Positions 3,178 through 25,467 of a stretch of 36,406 nt of DNA are shown piece by piece (within the stretch, counting starts at the first letter, position 1; every line of letters starts with the position of its first letter). Under the pieces are notes generated by a model that had not been told where the DNA came from, ran no database searches, and saw only the letters and a program-made list of their open reading frames with translations. Location of the stretch: IMG/VR virus record IMGVR_UViG_3300027917_000013; one strand, written 5' to 3'. This DNA comes from a virus. Position numbers and translations under genes: made by a program.

Positions 3178-4464
3178 TTACACTATGTTTACCGTTACCG
3201 ATTCGCCCAGGGTAATCCCATCATTCACATAAAGCAATTTTGGACTACCAACCGCGCTTGCTTTACCGACTTCAACTGTTCTTACTTGGATTTGTACGTT
3301 GCAAGCGTTGTTGTCCGTTCCCGCGGTATCCCGGTATTGGATAAGCAAGCGTTTGTTTGCATTATCAATTTCCGCTTGCCATTCTTTCGTGTTATCAGTT
3401 GGGTAAACCTTGGTTAATGTCTGCGTTACAATGTTCATTGTCCCTTGAGTATTTGCAATGACCCCCTCAAGTTTCCACGCGTAAAAATCCGCAAGGACAT
3501 TTTCCGCGCCCGCAATCAACGCCTCAAAATACCAAAGCGTATTTTCAATTAAGGGATATTGGTAACCCGTTACCCAACTTGATGACCAACTTGCAATTAA
3601 TTCCTCTTGGGAAATTAACGAGCATTGATTCATTCCTTGATAGGGGTCCGCGCCCGCATTATAAGAATTTACCCCGTTGCCCCAAACAATCCGCCCGTTG
3701 AAATACCCGTTGCCCGAATCGTCATTGCTTATGGTTTCCTCGCCAATGTGCAACCCCCCAAGTTGGTAATCCGTATAATGACGGTAACCAAATTGCATTA
3801 TCCATTGGGTCGGGCTTGCCCCGCTCCCCAATAAATCGTTTTGCTCCCCAACCTGTAAACTACTCCAAACGTCCCCTTGGGTCAAACAATTGATTGCCGC
3901 GTATTGCCCGGTATAAGTTGGGTAATCTGAAACCCCAGTTGCGGTTAAATCGTTGTTTTCCCCAACCGAATACCCTCCAAAAGTTTCGTCAATAATATCG
4001 TTGTTTGTACCAAAAATAAAAATATAATTGCCCTCCTCTATATCGTGATTTTCCCCAAAAGCAACAACCGCATATTGTCCGCCCGAATACGCGCCCGCAA
4101 CGTCAATATCAATTGCAAACCCGTAACCCAAGCAAAGATAAGAATATTGCCCCATATCAACCCCCGCGCCTCCAAGGACAACGGAATAATCCGAGCCCGC
4201 AACAATTTTATTGTAATTCCCGGTCAAAATACCGGAATAATCCGAGCCCGCAACGTCATTTGAATCGGTCCCCGTAAGTTGCAAGTCAACAACGTCCGCG
4301 CCCCGGTTCCCGGTCCCGTCCTCTTTTGCCCATTTTGTACCATGTATCCATGTAAAACCATCATCAACATTTCCCTTGATACCCTCCCCTAACATATCCC
4401 GAATCGTTTTCCTGATTAAGGGCTCAAGCCTTTTATAAAGCCCAGTAATATTATCCATGCTCAA
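3178..4464 (-). CDS. Tail fibre / receptor-binding protein (putative)
   Basis: 428 aa, the last large gene of the tail module, with an ATGA overlap to the upstream gene. It is Gly/Asn/Ser/Tyr-rich with short internal repeats (AGSDYSGILTGNYNKIVAGSDYSVVLGG), typical of beta-helical fibres. The C-terminal 15 aa match the repeat motif of the 894-aa protein. Confidence 0.6.
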   Translation of the reverse strand: MSMDNITGLYKRLEPLIRKTIRDMLGEGIKGNVDDGFTWIHGTKWAKEDGTGNRGADVVDLQLTGTDSNDVAGSDYSGILTGNYNKIVAGSDYSVVLGGAGVDMGQYSYLCLGYGFAIDIDVAGAYSGGQYAVVAFGENHDIEEGNYIFIFGTNNDIIDETFGGYSVGENNDLTATGVSDYPTYTGQYAAINCLTQGDVWSSLQVGEQNDLLGSGASPTQWIMQFGYRHYTDYQLGGLHIGEETISNDDSGNGYFNGRIVWGNGVNSYNAGADPYQGMNQCSLISQEELIASWSSSWVTGYQYPLIENTLWYFEALIAGAENVLADFYAWKLEGVIANTQGTMNIVTQTLTKVYPTDNTKEWQAEIDNANKRLLIQYRDTAGTDNNACNVQIQVRTVEVGKASAVGSPKLLYVNDGITLGESVTVNIV

Positions 4465-7585: not shown

Positions 7586-9637
7586 TTACCTGTATTCTTG
7601 AATCCTGCTTGCCAGTTTCCAAGCAAACTCCTCAAAATCCATATCGGACACAATTTGAGCCCCGGGGATGCTTACATTTATATTTGTCCCTGGGGGAGTC
7701 TCCCCTTGAGGGGTAACCGTTACAGTTTCCCCCCGGGTTGCCATAAAATTAACCGGGACCCTATCAATGCCCGGGCTCCCCTCAACAAGGAATTGCCCGC
7801 CGAATTGCATTTTTACTTTATTGTGTACCAAATGATTATAAACAAAATAAGATTGCGTTTTTGCAACTGAAAAAGTATATACCTTGCTCTTTCCAACACA
7901 AGGAATTATCCCTTTGATTTCATCAAATCCGCCCTCAACAAGCATAATTTTATTTTCTTTTGTAAGGTCCCGGGTTTCAACCCAACCCGCTTTTATATCA
8001 AACCAAGGATGCTCCGGGGAGCAAATAAAACTTGAGTCGTTGAATATAACCTCAAGTAAATCATCCCGCTCAAATTGGAATATTTCCGCTACCTCATTCA
8101 TTACAGGTTTTTCAAGGTTTTCATCATAAGACCAAACCAAATCCCCAACCTTGATTTCCTCAATTACCTTAAACCCGGAATAAATGTTAACGAGGGTCCC
8201 AGGGGCAAAGCAACCCCCGCCTCCCCCGTCCCCCTCGTCTTTCTTGTCGTCTCCCCCATTGTCCCCGCCTCCCCCGGGTATTTTCTTTAAATCATCAAGC
8301 CCTTTAACATCAAGCTCAATTGGGATATAAATACTTTCGGGTAATAAGTCAAATTCGTTTCCCAATTCAAGCAAATCATCAACAACGTCATTTACCGCGG
8401 TCCCTTGGTCCTCCCAATCCCGCTCAAGACGGGCAAGGGCAAGTTGAGCCTTGACGGTATCGGAGTCAAGTCCCCCAATCTTGGTTGCAACCTCAACAAA
8501 GATTGACTCAAGCTCGGGCAATTCCTCTTCACTCGCCTTTTTATAAGCCTCGTTAAGATGCTCCATTGCCTCCGCCGCGAGTCTCGCGTCCGTTACCTTT
8601 TGCAAGGACAACGCAAGGTTGCGGGTCTTTTGCTCCGCCTCCCCCGCCTCTTTATTGGTTGTCTGCAATCCCTTGTTCCAACCGTCAATTGCGGTATCCC
8701 CCATTTCAAGAGCTTTATTTAAAGCAAGTTGCGCCTTTTGCGCGTTATATTCCTCCTCGGTTAAACGATAAAAATAAATTGGCATATCTTTAACCGCGTC
8801 CCGGTATTCCTCAATCGTATTTGTTGACTCAAGAAATCTTTGATTTTGCTCTTTGGTTGCATCAATTACCGCAAATATCCCGTCAAGCCAAGGATTCGCG
8901 CCCTCCGCAACCCAGGTTGCAAACCCAACTTTCAAATCATCCATTGTTGCATTAAAACGGTCCAAACTTGAGGTTGCATTAAATCCCGCTTCATCAAGCG
9001 CGTTAAGTTTTCCTTCCGCCTCCTCCATTGTCGCAATAAGGAATCTTGTTTGACGGTCCGCCTCCGCAATGCCGTCATTTGCAAGTTCCTCCATTCGTTC
9101 CTTTACTTTCGCGCCTGAAATCCCGAACGTATCAAGCCTTAATATTGATTGGTTGGCAAGCAAAAGGGTAAATTCCTCAAACGCCTCTTTGGGTCCCTTA
9201 CCCATTGTTGCCCCAAGCGTTGTTGCAATGCGGGTCAATTTCGCGGCTTCATCCGCGTTTTCCGCAAGCCCCATTGACAATAAACGGGTTGCGTTTTGCA
9301 TCGCGTCCATTTTTGAGATTGTCCCCCCGGTTGCATCTTGGACCGCGTTTAACATTTCCTCCGCCGCGCGCCCTCCGCCCGCGTACGCTTTAAGGGCAAC
9401 CTCGGACCGTTGCGCGGCAATCCCCATTTCGTAAAGCTCGGGCAATGCTTTGATTGCGGACATTCCCAAATTTACGATTTGGTTACCCGCTCCGAGCATT
9501 ACCCCATCAAGAATAGAAAATTGACTCCCGGTCTTTTCGCCTTGTTTCCCCAGGTCCTCAAGGTCATTTTTAACATCCTGGGACCCGGTCCCTTGTTTTA
9601 CTACTCTTAAGATAATATCAAGTAAGGATTTGGACAT
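7586..9637 (-). CDS. Tape measure protein with a C-terminal Hint/BIL domain
   Basis: 683 aa, directly downstream of the G/GT chaperone pair, with its start overlapping the upstream stop as TAATG. The N-terminal roughly 450 aa are Ala/Glu/Leu/Lys-rich and look helical. A Gly/Asp linker, an intein-like block and a 77-aa tail follow. Confidence 0.8.
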   Translation of the reverse strand: MSKSLLDIILRVVKQGTGSQDVKNDLEDLGKQGEKTGSQFSILDGVMLGAGNQIVNLGMSAIKALPELYEMGIAAQRSEVALKAYAGGGRAAEEMLNAVQDATGGTISKMDAMQNATRLLSMGLAENADEAAKLTRIATTLGATMGKGPKEAFEEFTLLLANQSILRLDTFGISGAKVKERMEELANDGIAEADRQTRFLIATMEEAEGKLNALDEAGFNATSSLDRFNATMDDLKVGFATWVAEGANPWLDGIFAVIDATKEQNQRFLESTNTIEEYRDAVKDMPIYFYRLTEEEYNAQKAQLALNKALEMGDTAIDGWNKGLQTTNKEAGEAEQKTRNLALSLQKVTDARLAAEAMEHLNEAYKKASEEELPELESIFVEVATKIGGLDSDTVKAQLALARLERDWEDQGTAVNDVVDDLLELGNEFDLLPESIYIPIELDVKGLDDLKKIPGGGGDNGGDDKKDEGDGGGGGCFAPGTLVNIYSGFKVIEEIKVGDLVWSYDENLEKPVMNEVAEIFQFERDDLLEVIFNDSSFICSPEHPWFDIKAGWVETRDLTKENKIMLVEGGFDEIKGIIPCVGKSKVYTFSVAKTQSYFVYNHLVHNKVKMQFGGQFLVEGSPGIDRVPVNFMATRGETVTVTPQGETPPGTNINVSIPGAQIVSDMDFEEFAWKLASRIQEYR
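7820..8212 (-). other. Hint / bacterial intein-like (mini-intein-sized) domain inside the tape measure protein (residues 476-606)
   Basis: Intein blocks are readable. Block A is CFAPGTLVNIYSG. Block B is FICSPEHPWF. Block F is KVYTFSVAKTQSYFV. Block G is NHLVHN, followed by Lys at the +1 position. Confidence 0.7.
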
Positions 9638-13875: not shown

Positions 13876-15279
13876 TTACAACCTCCGATAAAAACCAAAT
13901 TCGCCCTCGGGGGGGACAATGCGGTTTGCATCAAGCCAAACCTGAAACGGTTTTGAATGGTCAAAATGTTGGGGCATTGTGTCTTGTTGCCCAAAGTTGT
14001 TGTGAAAATAAAAAAGCCCGTCCGGTTTCAGTAATGCAAGCCATTTATCAAGCGTTGTCATCAATTCACCCGGATGAATATGCTCGATAACATCAACCGC
14101 AACAATCAAATCATATTTGAGCCCAACATTAATATAATCTTGATAGCAAGTATGGTCCCAAAGCAAAACGTTTTTATCATCCTGAAACCGGGTCATCATA
14201 AAATCACGTAATACCCCGGGCAATTCATAAACGTCAACCTGATTTGCTCCCCGCAAAACCTCAACCTCCCCGCCAATACCCCCGCCAACTACCAAGACCT
14301 TTTTATCCTTTATCTTTCGCAAGGGGTTTATGATTTGATGGTAAAACGGGGAAACATTCCATGCCAGTAAATCATATAAATATCCGTTTTCCTCGCGCCC
14401 GTAAAACTCGCGGTATTCCTCGGGGGTTTGCGGGTTTGCTTGCTCGAATGCGTTGCGGGTAAATTCGGTTCCCTTTACCGCGTAAGCAATAACATCATCC
14501 TGGGGGACCCCGGTAAAATCGGATATAAGCTCAACCAATGACAGGTAATCTTGCCATTTATCCCAAATGCCCGAAATCCTGATTTGCTCTTGATAGGTTT
14601 GCCAACCCGTTACAACCCGGGAAATATGCCCCGCTTTTACGCTCGTTGTTGAGCCAATCTTAAATTTGTATTTACCCCCCGCCTCCCTTGAAAATGCCAT
14701 ATCTTCACTTGTCCCCCCATGCCTCGGATACCAAAACCAATCAAACCGCTCGAGCGGGACCCCTGGGTTGTCATTCAAGATAGTTTCAAAAACCTCCCGC
14801 CTTATCAAAACGCAATGCAACCCAACTGCCGCGGTTGTTTCGGTAAAGTTGTCTTTCCAAACCAAGCATTGCATCAAATCCCCGAGCGTTGATTCCTTAA
14901 ACCAAATTGCCTCCGGGGGGAATCCCCGCCTTGTATAAAATGCCTGGAAAATGTCAAATTCAAAACCCTCGGGGACGGTCCGCAAGTCCTCAACGAAACC
15001 GGGACCAAATGACGCGTCCGAATCCAAAAAACAAAGGGTATCGTTGTTGCTCCGCAAGAATCCCCTTACAACCTCATTTGCCGCGGTATGAGCAACCCGG
15101 TCCTTGGCAATGATAAACGAGTCCCCCGTCCTCAACCCGGTTGTTATCAAATGGGACCAATCGGTTACAAACTGGGACTCAACGAGTTTTTCAAGACGCG
15201 TTGCAACACATATTGAGCCCCAATCAAGGGGAGCGGTTGCTTGCTCTTTGTTTACCTCATAATCAACTTTTGTTTCCAT
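13876..15279 (-). CDS. Glycosyltransferase (GT-A, DxD) fused to a class I SAM-dependent methyltransferase
   Basis: 467 aa from ATG 15279, preceded by AAGAGGAGTCAAAAGATT. The N-terminal half has CFLDSDA (DxD) and GTSEDMAF motifs and looks paralogous to the 268-aa GT. The C-terminal half has VLVVGGGIGGE (motif I), DLIVAVDVIEHI and LKPDGLFY. The ORF-track start at 15357 is a TTG that runs through a hairpin. Confidence 0.7.
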   Translation of the reverse strand: METKVDYEVNKEQATAPLDWGSICVATRLEKLVESQFVTDWSHLITTGLRTGDSFIIAKDRVAHTAANEVVRGFLRSNNDTLCFLDSDASFGPGFVEDLRTVPEGFEFDIFQAFYTRRGFPPEAIWFKESTLGDLMQCLVWKDNFTETTAAVGLHCVLIRREVFETILNDNPGVPLERFDWFWYPRHGGTSEDMAFSREAGGKYKFKIGSTTSVKAGHISRVVTGWQTYQEQIRISGIWDKWQDYLSLVELISDFTGVPQDDVIAYAVKGTEFTRNAFEQANPQTPEEYREFYGREENGYLYDLLAWNVSPFYHQIINPLRKIKDKKVLVVGGGIGGEVEVLRGANQVDVYELPGVLRDFMMTRFQDDKNVLLWDHTCYQDYINVGLKYDLIVAVDVIEHIHPGELMTTLDKWLALLKPDGLFYFHNNFGQQDTMPQHFDHSKPFQVWLDANRIVPPEGEFGFYRRL

Positions 15280-15301
15280 AATCTTTTGACTCCTCTTTTT
15301 C

Positions 15302-15351
15302 GAGCGGGGGAATTGGAGGAGGAGGAGTCCAAACCTCCGCTTCCCCCGCTC
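15302..15351 (-). promoter_or_regulatory. Large GC-rich stem-loop between the 143-aa gene and the GT-MTase gene
   Basis: There are perfect 11-bp arms, GAGCGGGGGAA (15302-15312) and TTCCCCCGCTC (15341-15351). An inner GGAGG/CCTCC pairing adds to the stem. No U-tract follows on the minus strand. Confidence 0.5.
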
Positions 15352-15355
15352 TACC

Positions 15356-15382
15356 AAATAAGCGCGCCGGGGGTTGCGCTTA
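15356..15382 (-). terminator. Weak intrinsic-terminator-like hairpin at the stop of the 143-aa gene
   Basis: The minus-strand RNA reads UAAGCGCAACCCCCGGCGCGCUUAUUUGG. This gives a 6-bp AAGCGC/GCGCUU stem, a 10-nt loop and a U-rich trail. Confidence 0.35.
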
Positions 15383-17229: not shown

Positions 17230-17965
17230 TGTTAAATTCCTCCGTTAAGTCTTGTATAACATTTGATAAACTGTCAATTACCTCGGGGGGTAATTCCGTT
17301 TCACTCGCGTCGGGTATTGGTTCATTTGTGTTTGGTTCAACGTCATTATCCTCGGGTAATTCTGAAACGGGGTCATCTTGCTCCCCGTCATCATTCGTTT
17401 GTGTTTCCTTAAGCAATTCATCAAGCGTTTTAAGGGCAAGCCTCAACGCGTCTTGGTTTGCGGGTATTGTTACAATGCTTGACTCCAACATTTCCCATTT
17501 TTTGTAAACCCGTCCCCGTTGCAAGGGCTCCCCAGTTTCATCGGTACGCTTTTCCCATTCAACCGGGATAAACCCAACTGACATTGCATTTAAAAATCCC
17601 TTGTCCCATAAATCCCTTACAAGGTCCGCCTTGGCATTAATGCCCCGCTCAATAAACTGAAAGACCTTTTTGACTCCCTTACCCGGTATCAAGGAAACCT
17701 CAATTGCTTTTGCGACAACCGCGCCCGGGTCATAATAGTTATGCCCAAAAAGGATTACCGGGTTTTTATAATAATTGGTAAGGTCCGCGCCCTCCGCAAG
17801 TAATATATCCCCGTCCCGGTCAACTGATTCAGTTGAAACCATTGCCTCATAAATGCCCGCCTCGGGGTCAACCGCTTTTGATTCAATTACAAATGTTTTA
17901 CGTAATTTAACGTTACCTTTTTCAATCATTGCGTTAAAAAACGATTCGGTATTTGCGTCATTCAT
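17219..17965 (-). CDS. Prohead protease, HK97 / S78 family
   Basis: 248 aa. The sequence MVSTESVDRDGDILLAEG...PVILFGHNY matches the conserved N-terminal core of HK97-type prohead proteases. It lies between the portal and capsid genes. Confidence 0.8.
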   Translation of the reverse strand: MNDANTESFFNAMIEKGNVKLRKTFVIESKAVDPEAGIYEAMVSTESVDRDGDILLAEGADLTNYYKNPVILFGHNYYDPGAVVAKAIEVSLIPGKGVKKVFQFIERGINAKADLVRDLWDKGFLNAMSVGFIPVEWEKRTDETGEPLQRGRVYKKWEMLESSIVTIPANQDALRLALKTLDELLKETQTNDDGEQDDPVSELPEDNDVEPNTNEPIPDASETELPPEVIDSLSNVIQDLTEEFNNDG

Positions 17966-20082
17966 TCCTCAACCTCCGGTATCATCACACATAAACAATT
18001 GATAATATTGCCCGGGCTCCCGTTTGGGTCCCCTGGGTATTCCAATTGCTCATTGCCAACAACAAACATTTCATTGATTCCAACTCTTTGGTTATGCGCC
18101 GCGGCATGTTCGTCGCGCGTCCTCCCTGGGAGCAATGCGGAAATCCATATTTTCTTTTTGACAACCTCGGATTGGTCCCATGCTTGTTGGTCCGCAAAGT
18201 TGCTTGCGCCCGTCATTGTTGTCCTTGCAATACGCTCCGTTTGATAATCCGATTTGCGCCCGCCAAAGAAATTATTGATACGCTCTTGCATTGACGGAAT
18301 ACCCTCCCCCGCAAGCTCGGACTCTTGGATTATACCAATTAACCCGTTCCATGTTGTATCATTTACCTTTTGGGCAACCGTCCTTAATATATGCTCAATG
18401 CCAGTCCTTACAAGGGGAGCGTCAACGTCAAAGAGTAAATCAATCCCGAGCCCGTCAAGCTCATTTTGTCCAACCTGGGCAACCGTCCCTGCAACTGGGG
18501 GACCAAAACGCTTTATAAATTCGTCAACCCATTGCTCAAAATCAAATAAGTCCTCGGGGGTTGGAATCCGCTCGGGCTCCCGGGATTGAAACTTGCCGCG
18601 CCCGTAAATGCGGGAATTGCGGAGCCTTGCGTTAATTTCGTTTTGTTGGTCTTGGAAATAACGCTTAAGGGCGCGCCTCATGGAGTCAACTTGCTTGTCA
18701 ATTTGTTTTTGAGCCTTGCCCCAAATCGCCTCATGTTCTGCGCTTCCGTATTCGGGACCAATCATTTTATTTTTGGGGTCATTGATTCCCAGGTTATCAA
18801 CCCGAGGAGTAACAAACGCGCCCGCCTCCGAAATCGGGACCAAATTAACGGGAATATATCCAATGTCCCCGCCCTCAACCTCGGGCAAACCCAACCCCAG
18901 GTATTCGTTAAGCTCATTGACGGGATACCCCCGGTTTGCCAAGCGGTCAAGTTGGTCAATCTTGCTTGTCTTGTCCTCTTGCAACTGGGGAATCATTGTC
19001 AAGTTGGTCCTTACCTCAAGACCCCGCTCAATCTTGTTGTTTTTGCGGAAAAAGCGGGTTAACCCGTCATCCCTGAAACGGATAAGCGGGACAAGCGTCA
19101 AGGTCCACAAAACCCGGTCCGCGGTGTCAAAGTTTTCATAAGTATCCCGCCCGTAACCCATGATTTCATCGGGGACCCCGAAAAGCGCGCCCACCTCGTC
19201 GCGGTTAAACTTGCGTTGCTCCAACCATTCAACGTCTTTGGGAGGAAATGAAAAGGGCTTAATATCTGTAACCCCGTCCTCAAGTATGATTGGTTTATGC
19301 AACCCCTCCCCGGTCCCATAATCCCGCATAAGCTCATTCATATATTCATCCCGCTCAGTTTTGGTCAAACCATTGGGAGCAATCAAAGCATAATCCGGGC
19401 GGGCTTGATTGCGAAAAAATAACCGGGTCCATGCTTGCGCCAATTGGTCAATGATAATACCAATGCGGACCGCGGTAATGGGAGCAAGCCCGCGCCAAGG
19501 GTTGAGCGGGTTATAAAACTTGAAATGTATAAACTCCTCCGGGTCAAGTATGTAATCCGGTCCGTAACCGTCATCAATCTTGTAACCCGCAACCTTGCGG
19601 TACCTTTTTCCTTTTTTCTCGGGTTTTACATGGAATATATGAGGCTCCCTGGGATACATTTCAAGGATTGCATTTTGCGTTTGGTTCATTACCAATTCAA
19701 CCCCTTGCTCCCCGCCAAGCATCATATTAACAACCCATTCCCCCCAAAAATCCGCTTGTGACATTTCCTCATTGGGATAATCCAAAACGTCATTCAAAGG
19801 ATGATTATCCTTGGTTTCGTAACTGTCCCCGGTTTGCTCAACAACATTTATATCAAGCGGAGCAATCGAATCCTTGAGGACCTTGATTGCTTTGTGTACC
19901 CAAGTTTGGGTTTGATAGAAATCCGCATTGCCCAAGAACGTCCCCCGAGCAACCCCCCGCTCCTCCCCGCTCATTATCCGCATGATTGGCAACCTCCATT
20001 GCAAATCGGGATGCAAATCATACAATGGGGAGGGGTTGGTTTGTTTGTTTACCCGGTCCGTTATTCGTTTCAATATACTCAT
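17962..20082 (-). CDS. Portal protein fused to a MuF-like (SPP1 gp7-like) minor head protein domain
   Basis: 706 aa. The N-terminal roughly 430 aa are portal-like by position and length. The C-terminus has MuF hallmarks: RIARTTMTGASNFADQQAW, WISALLPGRTRDEHAAAHNQ and PGDPNGSPGNIINCLCV. Confidence 0.75.
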   Translation of the reverse strand: MSILKRITDRVNKQTNPSPLYDLHPDLQWRLPIMRIMSGEERGVARGTFLGNADFYQTQTWVHKAIKVLKDSIAPLDINVVEQTGDSYETKDNHPLNDVLDYPNEEMSQADFWGEWVVNMMLGGEQGVELVMNQTQNAILEMYPREPHIFHVKPEKKGKRYRKVAGYKIDDGYGPDYILDPEEFIHFKFYNPLNPWRGLAPITAVRIGIIIDQLAQAWTRLFFRNQARPDYALIAPNGLTKTERDEYMNELMRDYGTGEGLHKPIILEDGVTDIKPFSFPPKDVEWLEQRKFNRDEVGALFGVPDEIMGYGRDTYENFDTADRVLWTLTLVPLIRFRDDGLTRFFRKNNKIERGLEVRTNLTMIPQLQEDKTSKIDQLDRLANRGYPVNELNEYLGLGLPEVEGGDIGYIPVNLVPISEAGAFVTPRVDNLGINDPKNKMIGPEYGSAEHEAIWGKAQKQIDKQVDSMRRALKRYFQDQQNEINARLRNSRIYGRGKFQSREPERIPTPEDLFDFEQWVDEFIKRFGPPVAGTVAQVGQNELDGLGIDLLFDVDAPLVRTGIEHILRTVAQKVNDTTWNGLIGIIQESELAGEGIPSMQERINNFFGGRKSDYQTERIARTTMTGASNFADQQAWDQSEVVKKKIWISALLPGRTRDEHAAAHNQRVGINEMFVVGNEQLEYPGDPNGSPGNIINCLCVMIPEVEE

Positions 20083-20222
20083 AATTTAATACCCATTTCA
20101 TAACCCTCGATTAATGCCGCGACAAAGTATTTACAAAGTTTAACCGTTGCCCCGGCAATTATCCCCAAACCAATCGGTATTAAAGCAAACAACCAACCAA
20201 GCGCGGATTTGATTTTTGTCAA
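20079..20222 (-). CDS. Small single-TM peptide (47 aa, TTG start), absent from the ORF track
   Basis: My hand translation is (M)TKIKSALGWLFALIPIGLGIIAGATVKLCKYFVAALIEGYEMGIKL. GGGAGG lies 8 nt upstream. The TTG overlaps the TGA of the 894-aa gene, and the stop overlaps the portal ATG as ATGA. This fills an otherwise unexplained 136-nt gap. Confidence 0.45.
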   Translation of the reverse strand: MTKIKSALGWLFALIPIGLGIIAGATVKLCKYFVAALIEGYEMGIKL

Positions 20223-22903
20223 CGTTTGTGCCTCCCGCGTAATTTGTTGTAACGATTACCTGGGACCCCCAACTGATTCAAACGGTCATACCGTAATTTT
20301 CGTTTTACCCATTTCCGGGGTTGCTCCTCGGGGGTAACAATATCAATGTCAACCAATTCCCCAAGGATAACCGCGTCAAGTACATTAATTGATAAATCCC
20401 CGCCCGATAAAACCAAAACGTTTATTGCATCGGCAACCGTTACATTATCCGTTACCCCGATTTGCAAAGCATCCGGTAACAAGAGGCTTGCCGCGTCCGC
20501 AACCGTCAAACCATCAAGGGCTTGAATAAATAATAAGGTTGCAAGGTCAATTTCATCCGCAACTGTAACCCCGTCCGTTTCCGATATTTCGAGTTTGAGC
20601 GGGTCCAAGTTTGCCGCGTCCGCAACGGTAACCCCGTCCTCAACGTTGATATAAAGGATGCCCTCAACCGGGATTGATACGTTTACCGCATCGGCAACCG
20701 TTACCGCGTCCGTTTCAAATATCTCAATCAATAACGGGTCAACCTGGGCAATGTCCGCAACCTCAACCCCGTCCGTTACATCAACTTGCAACGGGGTCAT
20801 TGTTACGCTTACAAATTCATCAACGGTTAACCCATCGGAAACATTGACATATATAACACCCTCAACCGGGAGGTTGACGTTGATTTCCTCCCCAACCGTT
20901 ACACCCTCCGCAATCGCGATTTGCAACGCGTCCGGTAATGATACGCTTACAAATTCGCCCAGGTCAACATTGTCCGCAACGTCAATCCTTATGGGTATTT
21001 CAACGTTTGTAAACTCCCCGAGAGTCAACCCCTCCGCAATCGCGATTTGTAAAGCATCGGGCAAAATGACGTTGATAAATTCGGCAAGCGTTGTCCCGTC
21101 CGTAACGTCAATTTGTAAAGCATCGGGCAAGGTTACGTTGATGATTTCGCCCAGGTTTACCCCGTCCGTTGTACTGATTTCGAGCTTGATTGCTCCTACC
21201 TGGGCAATGTCCGCAACGGTCAACCCGTCAAGCTCGGCAATCTGTAAAGCTCCCATTTCGAGGTTAACGATTTCCGCGATTGTTACCCCGTCCGTTTTGC
21301 TTATCTCAAGTTTGATTGGGGCAACTGCAACGATTTCGGAAACGATTACCCCGTCCGAAACCTCAATTGTTAGGTTTGCCTCCCCTGGGATATTGACGTT
21401 GACAAACTCGGAAACGGTCAACCCATCGGTTTTATTTATCTGTAACGCATCGGGGAGGGTTACGTTAACAAACTCCCCCAGGTTGATGTTATCGGATACG
21501 TTTACCTCAAGTTTAATTGGTCCAATATTGACAAACTCCGAAACTGTAACCCCGTCCGTTTCCGATATTTCCAAATTGGATAAAATGACGTTGATGATTT
21601 CCCCAAGGTTTACCGCGTCCGAAACATTGATTTGCAGATTACCCAAGCGGACCGTTACCAATTCGCCAAGCGTTATCCCCTCGGTTTCGGATATAAAGGA
21701 TTTGAGCCTTGCGGTTACTTGCTCCCCCAGGGTTACTCCGTCCGTTTCAACAATCCCGGCAAGTTTGGTTTCAACCGTTACGATTTCGTCAACCGTTACC
21801 CCGTCCGTTTCCGAAACGGATAAATCCCCGCCCAGGTCCAAAGTATTGAAATAAATATTGCTCCCGTCCGTAAATATGTACCCAATTTCATTTGAGCTTG
21901 ACGGAGGTTTTTCAACCATTAACCGGGTATATGTTCCGGTTTCAATTGCTCCCCCATCGGTCCAACCGCTCCCGGTATTATAAATGTAATGAACGTCCGC
22001 GCTTGTATCTATATAAAATATATATTGGTCCGTCCCAACATAAAGCGCATCAAGTAAATATTGTCTATTGGTAGATACTACGTTGTAACCTGTATCCGAT
22101 AAAGTATCAACGTCCGCGCCCTCATAAATGTTGTCATTATTATCCGCAAAAACAATCCAAGGGGTTGTGCCTGAAACGTCAATTGCCATGCCTGCACTTG
22201 CTTGGTCCGCAACCCCCTCATCCTCGGTTCCCCAGGTTCCGCTTGTCCGCTTGCGGTAATAACCGTCCTTATCGTTTGTTGTTTCAGTATAAGATGATGA
22301 ACCACTATAAACAACGTGCGGGTCATCTGCGGTGTCAAGGACCATATCAACCATATTACAATGTTCTTGTATATCGGTTGCGCTTACTTTTTCTTGGGTT
22401 GCCCAAGATGCCCCGGTCCGGTTTGAATAATAAGGGTGTCCGTATGTTGTACCCTTAATTTTTAAACCCATTGTTGTTAAAACGTGAGGTTTGTCATTGC
22501 TATCAATCCAAATTCTTATATCCCCGTAAGTTGTAAATGCCAATAAACCATCAACAACAATACCAACTGATTCCCAAGACCCCAACCATGAATCGGTTCC
22601 GGTATCATATACCCGATAATAAAGAGGGGTTGCAAAAGGTAAACCAACAACAACGTGAATATCATCCGTTGAATCAATTGCCGCGTCCATTGCAGTAAAT
22701 TCTTCATCCGCGCCAACAATGTCATTATCTGTAACGGTTGATTGCAATGACGGGGAAGTATCAACATTTTTATATATCCGAAATTCGGGGTATCCGTATG
22801 TCCCTTTTGTACCTCCCGGGACAATAGCATACCAAACCCCGCCCGAGGTTTTAACAACCGCTCCGCGCAAATCTAAACTTGCCGCGTTGATTGTGATTGC
22901 CAT
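20219..22903 (-). CDS. Large virion-associated repeat protein with a propeller-like N-terminal domain, 23 tandem repeats and a basic tail
   Basis: 894-aa ORF. The N-terminal roughly 355 aa show a recurring D..D.PHVV / G..W pattern suggesting beta-propeller blades. Residues 364-856 are tandem repeats. The last 38 aa contain 13 Lys/Arg. Confidence 0.85.
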   Translation of the reverse strand: MAITINAASLDLRGAVVKTSGGVWYAIVPGGTKGTYGYPEFRIYKNVDTSPSLQSTVTDNDIVGADEEFTAMDAAIDSTDDIHVVVGLPFATPLYYRVYDTGTDSWLGSWESVGIVVDGLLAFTTYGDIRIWIDSNDKPHVLTTMGLKIKGTTYGHPYYSNRTGASWATQEKVSATDIQEHCNMVDMVLDTADDPHVVYSGSSSYTETTNDKDGYYRKRTSGTWGTEDEGVADQASAGMAIDVSGTTPWIVFADNNDNIYEGADVDTLSDTGYNVVSTNRQYLLDALYVGTDQYIFYIDTSADVHYIYNTGSGWTDGGAIETGTYTRLMVEKPPSSSNEIGYIFTDGSNIYFNTLDLGGDLSVSETDGVTVDEIVTVETKLAGIVETDGVTLGEQVTARLKSFISETEGITLGELVTVRLGNLQINVSDAVNLGEIINVILSNLEISETDGVTVSEFVNIGPIKLEVNVSDNINLGEFVNVTLPDALQINKTDGLTVSEFVNVNIPGEANLTIEVSDGVIVSEIVAVAPIKLEISKTDGVTIAEIVNLEMGALQIAELDGLTVADIAQVGAIKLEISTTDGVNLGEIINVTLPDALQIDVTDGTTLAEFINVILPDALQIAIAEGLTLGEFTNVEIPIRIDVADNVDLGEFVSVSLPDALQIAIAEGVTVGEEINVNLPVEGVIYVNVSDGLTVDEFVSVTMTPLQVDVTDGVEVADIAQVDPLLIEIFETDAVTVADAVNVSIPVEGILYINVEDGVTVADAANLDPLKLEISETDGVTVADEIDLATLLFIQALDGLTVADAASLLLPDALQIGVTDNVTVADAINVLVLSGGDLSINVLDAVILGELVDIDIVTPEEQPRKWVKRKLRYDRLNQLGVPGNRYNKLRGRHKR
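20336..21814 (-). repeat. Coding tandem repeat array (23 degenerate units of 15-25 aa, mostly 19-25)
   Basis: Units include SETDGVTVDEIVTVETKLAGIV, SDNINLGEFVNVTLPDALQIN and VTDGTTLAEFINVILPDALQIA. I parsed 23 units by hand. The periodicity also produces a 398-aa shadow ORF on the plus strand. Confidence 0.85.
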
Positions 22904-23584: not shown

Positions 23585-24391
23585 TTATGCAACCTCATAA
23601 TTGGGGAATTTGCTCCCGTCAATATTGATATGAAAACAAAATAAATTGGTATCAACAAGAAAAGGGTATTTTTTGCGTTGATACTTGGACCAACCCGCTT
23701 TTTTAAAATACTCGCCTTGTATGACCCGGTTGCACCATTCAAGGTCCGAGGTCCCCGAAAAGGTATTAAATTGGTTTGCCTCCTCAACAAAATAAACCCG
23801 TTGCGGGGTATCGAATACGCGCCTTGTTACCGTCCCCTTTATTTGGTATTCGGGGGACTCTTTCCACATTTCGCGGAGTATCCCCATGTGAATTAACAAA
23901 AACCCGGTTGGGACCCCGCTTGCCCAAACCAACTCCCCGCGCTTGAAATCGGTATAAACCGAGGTCCCGCGCCCTCGGAAAATCAAGGGCTCGGAAGGTT
24001 CCGCCCGCGTGTAGTAAAGACCGGAAACAACCGGGGTATCCTCATCCCTGATATATTGATTGAGTCTCAAAAGCGCGTCCCCAGGGGCAATAACATCATG
24101 CTCCCATAAGAGCAACCATTCAAAATCTTTTTCAATGGCGCGCTTGACAATCAGGTTTTGAGCGTCCGCAACTTGGTAACGCAAGGGGAAATATCCGCCC
24201 ATGTATTCGAGCGTTGTAACCTGGGACCAATTGACGGGGATGATTTGCCCGTATCGGGATTGTGTCCATTCGACTCGGACAATCCCCAGGGTTGCGGTCC
24301 CAATCATTACTCGATTGATATAACCCTCCCCCCCATCTTGCACAATTATTCGATAATCGCGGACCGGGTTTGACTCCTCTTTTTTATTCAT
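23585..24391 (-). CDS. GT-A fold glycosyltransferase-like protein
   Basis: 268 aa. It has LLLWEHDV in the DxD position, and also YYTR, GFLLIHMGILRE and GTSDLEWCNRV. These elements are collinear with the N-terminal half of the 467-aa GT-MTase (CFLDSDA, FYTR, GLHCVLIRREVFE, GTSEDMAFSRE). Confidence 0.55.
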   Translation of the reverse strand: MNKKEESNPVRDYRIIVQDGGEGYINRVMIGTATLGIVRVEWTQSRYGQIIPVNWSQVTTLEYMGGYFPLRYQVADAQNLIVKRAIEKDFEWLLLWEHDVIAPGDALLRLNQYIRDEDTPVVSGLYYTRAEPSEPLIFRGRGTSVYTDFKRGELVWASGVPTGFLLIHMGILREMWKESPEYQIKGTVTRRVFDTPQRVYFVEEANQFNTFSGTSDLEWCNRVIQGEYFKKAGWSKYQRKKYPFLVDTNLFCFHINIDGSKFPNYEVA

Positions 24392-24972: not shown

Positions 24973-25467
24973 TTACGCGGTTGCAAAGGTTACATCATAA
25001 GTATATTCAACCGCTTGGTTTGTCGCGCAAGTTGATGACCCATAAGTATTACCCGCAAAGATGGTCCCGCCCGTTGAGCTCGCGAAAAGCCCAATGTTTG
25101 CAAGGGATTCGGTTGCGGTAACAAACGAGTCCACACTTGCAAAGGTCCCAGTAAAGCGGACCCGGGTTGAGCCCGAACTTGCCGCGGTTACCGCGTCCCG
25201 GTTTCCATTTGCATTGGAACCCGTAACCTCGGATTGTAGCGCGGTATCCGTTGCGCCCGGTTCCGTCCCCTCACCAAGCGCGGCATAAGAAATATAACTT
25301 GAGCCCGAAATGGAGCCCAGGGATTTTACAAGGTAACCAAGGACCCCGTCATTTACGATTTGGTTGGGTCCCTGATAACCCGAATCTCCCGCAATGCTCC
25401 CGTCTTGGTTGCGGATTCTTACATGAGAAAACCCATGTATCTTTATTCCTTTTTCTTTTACTTTCAT
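24973..25467 (-). CDS. Hypothetical Ser/Thr/Gly/Ala-rich protein (possible virion component)
   Basis: 164-aa ORF just downstream of TerL, with GGAG 8 nt upstream. Its composition looks beta-rich (…AALGEGTEPGATDTALQSEV…IGLFASSTGGTIFAG…). No family named with confidence. Confidence 0.65.
   Translation of the reverse strand: MKVKEKGIKIHGFSHVRIRNQDGSIAGDSGYQGPNQIVNDGVLGYLVKSLGSISGSSYISYAALGEGTEPGATDTALQSEVTGSNANGNRDAVTAASSGSTRVRFTGTFASVDSFVTATESLANIGLFASSTGGTIFAGNTYGSSTCATNQAVEYTYDVTFATA

Follow-up and report, generated by a model that had tools for sequence, protein, structure and literature searches.

What is the role of a large, repetitive protein whose gene lies just ahead of a phage portal gene and which resembles no standard head or tail component? 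The question is raised by IMG/VR virus record IMGVR_UViG_3300027917_000013, a stretch of 36,406 nucleotides (nt) of viral DNA, hereafter the window, and by an 894-amino acid (aa) open reading frame (ORF) within it. That this ORF is real, and that it lies between a gene cassette and the portal gene, is as the original prediction, a reading of the sequence alone, had it. The failure of that reading to find a standard component for comparison also holds, with scans of Pfam (expect value (E) <= 0.01), PHROG and NCBIfam giving no family match and the pre-portal place being kept in related phages. The product consists of an N-terminal beta-propeller head, a stalk of degenerate repeats and a short, very basic C-terminal tail. 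On the computational comparisons set out here it is tentatively taken as an accessory fibre or adhesin of the virion, whose sugar-recognising head, stalk and docking tail would form a swappable and probably modified assembly; the chance of this being right is put at a little short of even.

On such an assignment the N-terminal propeller would be the distal end and recognise carbohydrate, and the 23 acidic beta-strand repeats would make a rigid stalk, ~11 nm long if a monomeric two-strand solenoid and longer if an oligomeric beta-fibre. The 36-residue basic tail would be the proximal end, docking the fibre on a virion component conserved in the lineage, for which the head or neck is likeliest because the gene is so tightly coupled to that for the portal. 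The pre-portal locus would serve as an exchange site, with the docking peptide kept and whole head-plus-stalk bodies swapped among related phages, and three genes upstream would be a dedicated accessory set for the stalk type, most plausibly modifying it post-translationally (glycosylation plus methylation) or being required for its assembly. Of these points the domain architecture, the head fold, the conserved tail with its place and the co-occurrence of set and stalk type are shown, and presence in the virion, polarity, docking partner, sugar binding and modification are inferred. The pre-portal exchange locus, the docking tail with its RYD/RYN motif and the dedicated three-gene set have not been reported before. 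A stronger combination is rather unlikely to hold in its entirety, namely that the RYD/RYN peptide is a portable docking or encapsidation signal by which lectin-stalk passengers are swapped at the pre-portal locus, and that the three genes are an undescribed, widespread system glycosylating and methylating the 20-22-aa stalk repeat, with single units acting as docking or recognition elements.

The AlphaFold2 model of the head, built from an alignment of 34 homologs, is all-beta with ~27 strands, a predicted local distance difference test score (pLDDT) of 88.6 and a predicted template-modelling score of 0.90, and Foldseek comparison with the PDB returned propellers only. Top-ranked are the seven-bladed PLL/PHL lectins of Photorhabdus (E 2e-10 to 1e-8, template-modelling score (TM) 0.57-0.65, probability 1.00), with an identity of 11-15% in the structural alignments. 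Further matches are to the PL42 rhamnose-glucuronate lyase (TM 0.63) and to GH145, the highest of all (TM 0.64-0.68), with sialidases at TM 0.50-0.55, the PL25 ulvan lyase also matched, and the range for enzymes being TM 0.5-0.68. The modelled fold is probably that of a seven-bladed propeller of the sugar-binding or sugar-cleaving type. When the model was compared with predicted viral structures, large phage proteins not yet characterised came out best, gp427 of Bacillus phage G among them. A profile of the head gathered 64 proteins, the most distant of which carry Pfam BNR_4, BNR_2 or BNR; the same profile gave nothing significant against PDB sequences and matched no solved enzyme.

From the blade periodicity of the N-terminal ~355 aa a propeller of the sialidase/BNR kind had been proposed. 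The propeller is upheld by the model and by Foldseek; the sialidase is not. No arginine is among the residues conserved in the 34 homologs, the sialidase arginine triad/RIP motif is absent, Pfam BNR models do not match the protein, and the best fold matches are to seven-bladed lectins and lyases, with the six-bladed sialidases matching less well; a sialidase identity is not supported. The G-x-(S/T)-W elements of the head (SNRTGASW, NTGSGW) are without the Asp of the Asp-box and are Asp-box-like only.

Whether such a propeller binds or cuts sugar turns largely on its conserved residues. In the homolog alignment D77, H83 and D134 are invariant and H140 is nearly so (at least 90% of sequences), the remaining invariant or near-invariant positions being G22, K45, P51, I76, Y96, I131, P139, G151, Y159, W167, Y294, D303 and G323. 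With a catalytic propeller, the protein would be a depolymerase fibre of the same architecture and attachment, its head, structurally in the class of PL42, PL25, GH145 or GH33, acting as a lyase or glycosidase that cuts capsule, slime or cell-wall polysaccharide so that the cell surface is reached. Propeller lyases of PL24, PL25 and PL42 use His/Tyr acid-base chemistry, which the near-invariance of K45, Y96, Y159 and H140, together with the three invariant residues, would fit; TM to GH145 and PL42 equals or exceeds that to the PLL lectins, and the BNR_2 and BNR_4 domains of distant head relatives point the same way. However, D77, H83, D134 and H140 belong to a D-x5-H motif found in three successive blades (aa 77-83, 134-140 and 189-195), a repeated blade motif and not a single centre; repetition from blade to blade, as in multivalent lectins, supports a binding head. 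The lack of the sialidase triad and of any conserved Arg, the non-catalytic binding modules that form the other heads on the same stalk, and the lack of a sequence-level match to any solved enzyme also count against cutting, and a depolymerase fibre is judged unlikely. The modelled head is best read as a carbohydrate-recognition domain, with binding somewhat likelier than catalysis.

Propellers of this family are also present in other settings. In protein P0004 (locus L002:119-2530) the same propeller head is on another stalk, of ~25 copies of a 16-aa repeat (RRGELSWAELQTQDAG), with scaffold and capsid genes coming after it, which from its gene content is another case of head/stalk shuffling inside a head module. 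P0021 and P0019, which are propeller-only or propeller-containing (L006:9363-11098, L007:4240-5975, L008:9348-11725), have a class I S-adenosylmethionine (SAM)-methyltransferase gene immediately upstream, with no BLAST relation to the methyltransferase-like gene of the window. The structural region of L006 also has GT8, GT4 and Methyltransf_21 genes.

For the stalk, a hidden Markov model (HMM) of the repeat unit finds exactly 23 units of 18-24 aa, the number originally counted, spanning aa 364-857, with a family consensus of SVSDGVTVGEAVTVSLPDAL. Relative to shuffled sequence the periodicity has z = 5.6 at lag 20-23 and z = 11.1 at lag 42-44. As DNA the repeats are degenerate, with one 66-bp x 1.9 tandem repeat only, and the stalk is strongly acidic (net charge -76, isoelectric point (pI) 4.05). 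AlphaFold2, given five sequences, models it as all-beta with two strands per unit, at pLDDT 59.6 overall and 70-81 in the mid-region. With this model Foldseek gave no match at E < 1, the non-significant list including beta-solenoids such as curli CsgA, tapirin and GlmU. The beta-solenoid originally predicted thus gains little or nothing from modelling, and for the stalk a fibre or solenoid is plausible. An apparent excess of N-x-S/T sequons (9 observed versus 3.7 expected, p ~0.006) was set aside as evidence of N-glycosylation, as the enrichment largely reflects the repeat consensus and is inconsistent among relatives.

Exhaustive HMMER searching with aa 362-894 places the stalk in a family of 534 representative proteins at E <= 0.001 (210 at E <= 1e-10), from 380 to 3136 aa in length, the usual layout being a ~220-aa globular N-domain followed by repeats up to ~60 aa before the C-terminus. 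Among 60 stalk relatives the Pfam partners are Laminin_G_3 (12/60) and also F5/8 type C, CBM96, CBM4_9, Kelch and Big_8, with a NosD match in 1/60, and a few relatives match PHROG families that bear the labels 'virion structural protein', 'tail protein' or 'minor tail protein'. The gene for one homolog, P0002, adjoins Beta_helix and BppU_N genes. Since the N-terminal partners are mostly binding modules and the PHROG matches are structural, the stalk is, as far as domain content tells, what phage structural proteins use to carry lectin-type heads that can be interchanged. A single unit of the stalk type (VNDGITLGESVTVNIV) ends g428 (3178-4464, -), the last protein of the tail module, which also has Gly/Asp-rich repeats; in a six-frame scan of the window this was the only significant unit besides those of the 894-aa protein. 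The fibre might dock by way of this strand, or the unit might be a recognition or modification site common to both proteins.

The poly-basic tail noted at the outset is confirmed by the last 36 aa, with a net charge of +10 and a pI of 11.6, disordered in the AlphaFold2 model. It recurs on other bodies. Its motif across the group is P-R-x(1-8)-[RL]-Y-D-x-[LWY]-[ND]-x-[LI]-G-x(3-6)-R-Y-[ND]-[KR]-[LH]-x-[RG]..R at the C-terminus, as in the endings ...PRKWVKRKLRYDRLNQLGVPGNRYNKLRGRHKR in the window, ...PARLGVRRLRYDRLNRIGKPGKRYNKHRGPWR in L001, ...PRNLYDKWDAIGDESGRYDRLSRRGRRQR in L011 and ...PRTRYDMYNSLGREAMPERYNRLSRRRRR in L015, L016, L018 and L019, and the same tail is present on P0081, a protein considered without genomic context. 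The independent proteins sharing it number 5-6 (window, L001, L011, L015/L016, L018/L019 and P0081). A word-indexed protein search with the tail alone returned nothing, and degenerate DNA patterns for it yielded no confirmed locus in IMG/VR.

The portals of the window and of L001, which encodes P0007, are 62% identical, and a portal-based scan of metagenome contigs added 19 further loci with portals 40-65% identical. Where upstream sequence exists, these loci are in one of two states. Either the large terminase gene directly precedes a small ORF and the portal, or a large gene is inserted there whose product ends in the basic tail motif. In the window, L001, L011, L015/L016 and L018/L019 the tail-bearing gene comes just before the small ORF and a gene in which the portal is fused to a MuF domain, so that portal-MuF is the conserved downstream neighbour of all tail-bearing genes. 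The bodies inserted are diverse. The L018 protein has a Laminin_G_3 (ConA-like) head and Pfam PTR 'phage tail repeat' units ahead of its tail; that of L015 has nothing but PTR units and is encoded after a separate gene, for a 460-aa product that is beta-helix-like by eye with no Pfam match; that of L011 has a head of no recognised family and a Gly/Ser-rich 20-aa repeat; and L001, P0081 and P0131 have in common a jelly-roll-like head, unlike the window's, on the window's stalk type. On the portal tree the presence of a tail-bearing gene is patchy (few sequences), and as closely related phages are without it the gene is accessory.

Because the codons differ at synonymous sites, selection acts on the tail as a peptide, and retention of the DNA itself, for instance as a regulatory element or pac site, was rejected. 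Also rejected was the idea that the tail and the prohead protease have a capsid-targeting signal in common, as in the window the motif occurs once, in the 894-aa protein, and the C-terminus of the protease is acidic. Since unrelated bodies share the motif, conserved at the protein level, it is taken as an anchor, and comparative data point to a conserved, lineage-specific docking or assembly motif, and not to the DNA or teichoic-acid binding first considered for the tail.

An anchor need not be on the outside. The tail could act as a loading signal that takes the protein into the procapsid, to portal-MuF or to DNA, for later ejection into the host, by analogy with scaffold and protease targeting peptides and packaged anti-restriction proteins. 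Precedents exist in the HK97 protease, which has a C-terminal region that targets it to the capsid, in P22 scaffold, whose basic C-terminal helix-turn-helix binds coat protein, and in the Dar proteins that P1 packages. A gene in the packaging/head module and translationally coupled to portal-MuF would suit such cargo, a conserved C-terminal peptide with a variable passenger has the logic of a cargo-loading peptide, and the contrast between a highly basic tail and an extremely acidic body (net charge -98) is also relevant. Yet lectin- or carbohydrate-binding-module-type heads on fibre-like stalks, PTR units included, make little sense inside a capsid; the variety of such heads and of tail-fibre-type stalks at the same locus argues against internal cargo, as do the lack of the motif, and the acidic C-terminus, of the phage's own protease and the presence of the same stalk in tail-module proteins elsewhere. 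Encapsidated cargo is regarded as improbable.

The three upstream genes encode, in order, a 164-aa protein, a methyltransferase-like protein and a 268-aa protein. For the 164-aa family there is no informative Pfam, PDB or PHROG match. The profile of the methyltransferase family finds the class I methyltransferase 3dli among PDB sequences (E 8.9e-8). In the 268-aa family, weak Pfam matches of GT2 type (E 0.065-0.27, about 0.07) are given by 4/15 members, and a conserved EWLLLxE[DH]DV places a DxD-like E[DH]D after a hydrophobic strand; against PDB sequences neither the 268-aa protein alone nor its profiles gave a match.

The original suggestion of a link between the repeats and neighbouring 'modification' genes now has real comparative support from co-occurrence of the set with the stalk type. 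Homologs of the 268-aa protein were found in 22 viral loci by an IMG/VR family scan and in 7 loci of metagenome-assembled genomes (MAGs). All three genes are present in 22/22 of the IMG/VR loci, those for the 164-aa protein and the methyltransferase being directly upstream in the same order (the L051 contig ends inside the 268-aa gene). Of the non-redundant loci that run on for 3 kb or more downstream, ~9/13 have an array of the same stalk type within a few kb, a count that includes two diverged arrays detected by periodicity; for loci without the set the corresponding figure is 0/27. For this association, searching with the whole array was more sensitive than the short unit HMM, which was set aside. 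From the other direction, loci found via the stalk have a 268-aa homolog upstream in 4/4. When the five upstream proteins were used in tblastn, the 164-aa, methyltransferase-like and 268-aa proteins were found together, at 51-57% identity and in the same order, upstream of the gene for stalk protein P0005 in L005, and a 268-aa homolog alone is at the contig-truncated starts of the loci encoding P0002 and P0007. In the available sequence of L011, L015 and L018, whose stalks are of other types, the set is absent; from its distribution it tracks the stalk type and not the tail or the pre-portal position. Three 268-aa homologs (L004:1-492, L005:3373-4278 and L044:2716-3651) end in a proline-rich linker and one stalk-like unit (DLG[VI]SVSDGxxMGE), an extension that the window's 268-aa protein is without; these single units, too, could be docking strands or shared recognition sites.

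That the protein is not part of the virion at all, being instead a moron-like product, co-expressed with the late genes, that lysis sets free or the infected cell displays (to bind matrix polysaccharide, for instance), with the three genes acting on host glycans as phage glycosyltransferase and methyltransferase genes often do in modifying host surface polymers, would accord with an accessory cassette, patchy among related phages, and with the protein's lack of a structural-family match, but is very improbable in view of its lack of a signal peptide or membrane segment, its stop/start overlaps with structural-gene neighbours, the specific co-occurrence of the set with the stalk type and not with host-glycan genes, and the stalk-like unit on some 268-aa homologs.

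A further putative modification enzyme, the second within the structural module on sequence criteria, is a 493-aa GT2/methyltransferase fusion (13876-15357, -), with a weakly GT2-like N-part and a class I methyltransferase, encoded between the capsid genes and the head-tail adaptor gene. The fusion is at the same place in L001, L011 and L014.

Several points weigh against the assignment as an accessory fibre or adhesin and are best considered together. For the head, the invariant His, Asp and Tyr residues leave catalysis possible and TM is slightly higher to the GH145/PL42 enzymes than to lectins. For the stalk, the model is of low confidence (pLDDT 59.6) and has no significant structural match. 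The tail motif comes from only ~6 independent sequences, and a C-terminal peptide so basic and disordered might just as well serve for encapsidation or nucleic-acid binding; the polarity proposed, with the N-terminus distal and the C-terminus anchored, is the reverse of that of most tail fibres. With the gene set, the GT-A assignment of the 268-aa protein comes from matches at E ~0.07 and a DxD-like motif only, the 164-aa protein matches nothing recognised, and the locus counts include redundant contigs. In addition, every relative of the 894-aa protein is from uncultured metagenomic contigs.

Those relatives are few and modular. A word search of 5.8 billion proteins returned only 9 homologs, with the N-domain only in some, repeats only in others, and repeats plus tail in P0007. 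IMG/VR holds no close relatives of the protein or of P0081, and tblastn of GenBank phages with the whole protein, the head, the 268-aa or the 164-aa protein gave no match, the closest cultured portal being only 27% identical to that of the window. The MAG contigs with the gene set are assigned to scattered taxa (Saccharibacteria, Caldilinea, Planctomycetes-like bins, Dependentiae and others), and for this reason are probably mis-binned phage, so no host can be named.

With known systems the likenesses are partial. The PLL/PHL lectins (PDB 6t96, 6rg2, 5mxg and others) are, like the head, propellers of ~350 residues with a motif repeated per blade, and bind fucose and O-methylated sugars (PMC6943638; PDB entry titles). 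They are soluble bacterial proteins and not fibre parts, and the phage head matches them by fold only, its sugar binding being predicted. Asp-box/BNR enzymes (GH33 sialidases, GH145, PL42 and PL25) have the propeller fold in common with the head. BNR Pfam domains are confined to its distant relatives, and the head differs from these enzymes in having no arginine triad/RIP motif, no Pfam BNR match and no assignable catalytic residue.

In being accessory, dispensable, encoded in or near the head module and fitted with an outward binding domain, T4 Hoc, phi29 gp8.5, the P68 head fibre and the head spikes of RcGTA are what the 894-aa protein is proposed to resemble, and Hoc is anchored via its C-terminal part. 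There is no relation in sequence or fold, and propeller heads, stalks of 21-aa repeats and short basic C-terminal peptides are absent from all of them. The closest functional analogy for the link between set and stalk is provided by AIDA-I and TibA, self-associating autotransporter adhesins with ~19-aa imperfect repeats forming a beta-helix, and by the heptosyltransferases Aah and TibC, encoded immediately upstream of AIDA-I and TibA, which glycosylate Ser/Thr in the repeats. AIDA-I and TibA are bacterial outer-membrane proteins, the enzymes are unrelated to the phage set, and for the phage stalk modification is suggested by gene co-occurrence only. That phages can modify structural proteins of their own has a precedent in mycobacteriophage work of 2023, in which phage glycosyltransferases reportedly act on capsid and tail-tube proteins of the same phage; the enzymes, substrates (C-termini of the major capsid and tail-tube proteins) and genome positions differ from those here. 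None of the head and neck fibres, AIDA-I/TibA or the mycobacteriophage systems is homologous to what is described here. Arrays of ~22-aa units of Pfam PF12789 (PTR) are in the pre-portal proteins of L015 and L018 (E 1e-14 and 3e-12). These proteins align weakly with the stalk plus tail of the 894-aa protein (E 3e-7 over 378 aa, 25% identity); its own repeats match neither PF12789 nor any other Pfam model.

Accessory fibres set which surfaces a phage sticks to, and nearly all known examples are from a few cultured phages. To these can now be added a large, previously unannotated stalk-repeat family, that of the 534 representatives, carrying interchangeable lectin-type heads, together with a short conserved peptide that appears to specify the mounting place of a fibre and a three-gene set that accompanies the stalk type. 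Were the tail a docking signal, it would be usable for the display of foreign binding domains on phage particles; were the stalk modified by the gene set, phage self-glycosylation would extend beyond mycobacteriophages to many environmental phages.

Table 1. Positions in the window of the 894-aa protein, its parts and the associated genes
Feature	Coordinates	Strand	Basis or remarks
894-aa ORF	20219..22903	-	Propeller head, 23-unit repeat stalk and basic tail; ORF list
Beta-propeller head, aa 1-360	21824..22903	-	AlphaFold2 and Foldseek; probably seven blades; sugar-binding or sugar-cleaving
Stalk, 23 degenerate repeats, aa 364-857	20333..21814	-	Unit HMM and shuffle test
Basic tail, aa 859-894	20222..20329	-	Motif P-R..RYD.LN..G..RYNKL.R
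47-aa ORF, one hydrophobic helix (MTKIKSALGWLFALIPIGLGIIAGATVKLCKYFVAALIEGYEMGIKL)	20079..20222	-	Read from sequence
Portal fused to MuF domain	17962..20082	-	Pfam Phage_portal E 6e-53, Phage_Mu_F E 1.5e-8
CxxCxxCC-like protein, 144 aa	22903..23337	-	Pfam PF03692 E 3e-4, below curated cut-off; 1-nt overlap with start of 894-aa ORF
Set member 3: 268-aa protein, possibly divergent GT-A glycosyltransferase	23585..24391	-	Weak GT2 hints
Set member 2: class I SAM-methyltransferase-like, 200 aa	24384..24986	-	Pfam Methyltransf_23 E 1.3e-3
Set member 1: 164-aa protein, no recognised fold	24973..25467	-	In all 22 viral loci
Single stalk-type unit at C-terminus of g428	3181..3228	-	Unit HMM E 1.2e-4

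The setting of these features is a late operon, the whole run of which is on the minus strand. Its order is GH25 endolysin, small terminase, large terminase, five small genes, the gene for the 894-aa protein, the portal-MuF fusion, prohead protease, a capsid-like protein, the GT2/methyltransferase fusion, adaptor and neck proteins, a tape-measure-like protein and distal tail genes. Junctions around the 894-aa ORF are tight. Its ATG shares 1 nt with the stop codon of the CxxCxxCC gene, in a TAATG junction, and its TGA overlaps the TTG start of the 47-aa ORF, whose own stop codon overlaps the portal ATG. Placement before the portal had been correctly called at the start, with the 47-aa ORF missed; from these overlaps that ORF is translationally coupled both to the gene before it and to the portal gene. 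A similar peptide is encoded directly upstream of related portals with or without a tail-bearing gene (L001, L012, L013, L019 and L022). The MuF-like domain occupies aa 592-701 of the portal protein, and the same fusion is present in all related portals recovered.

The CxxCxxCC-like protein has a very weak match to FliB, the flagellin lysine methylase. In L003 the called genes put its homolog (L003:2-445) directly upstream of the gene for propeller protein P0006, the two abutting or sharing ~1 nt at the start of the latter, an arrangement that suggests that the CxxCxxCC gene is linked with the propeller head and not with the stalk.

Two further genes are of interest in their own right. In the tape-measure-like protein of 683 aa (7586-9637, -) Pfam places a HINT / pretoxin-HINT domain (E 2.4e-10) at aa 474-601, perhaps an insert resembling an intein or a module that cleaves itself. 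Towards the left contig end, on the opposite strand, is a PAPS-reductase-like gene (1188-2030, +; PHROG 424, E 2.7e-33).

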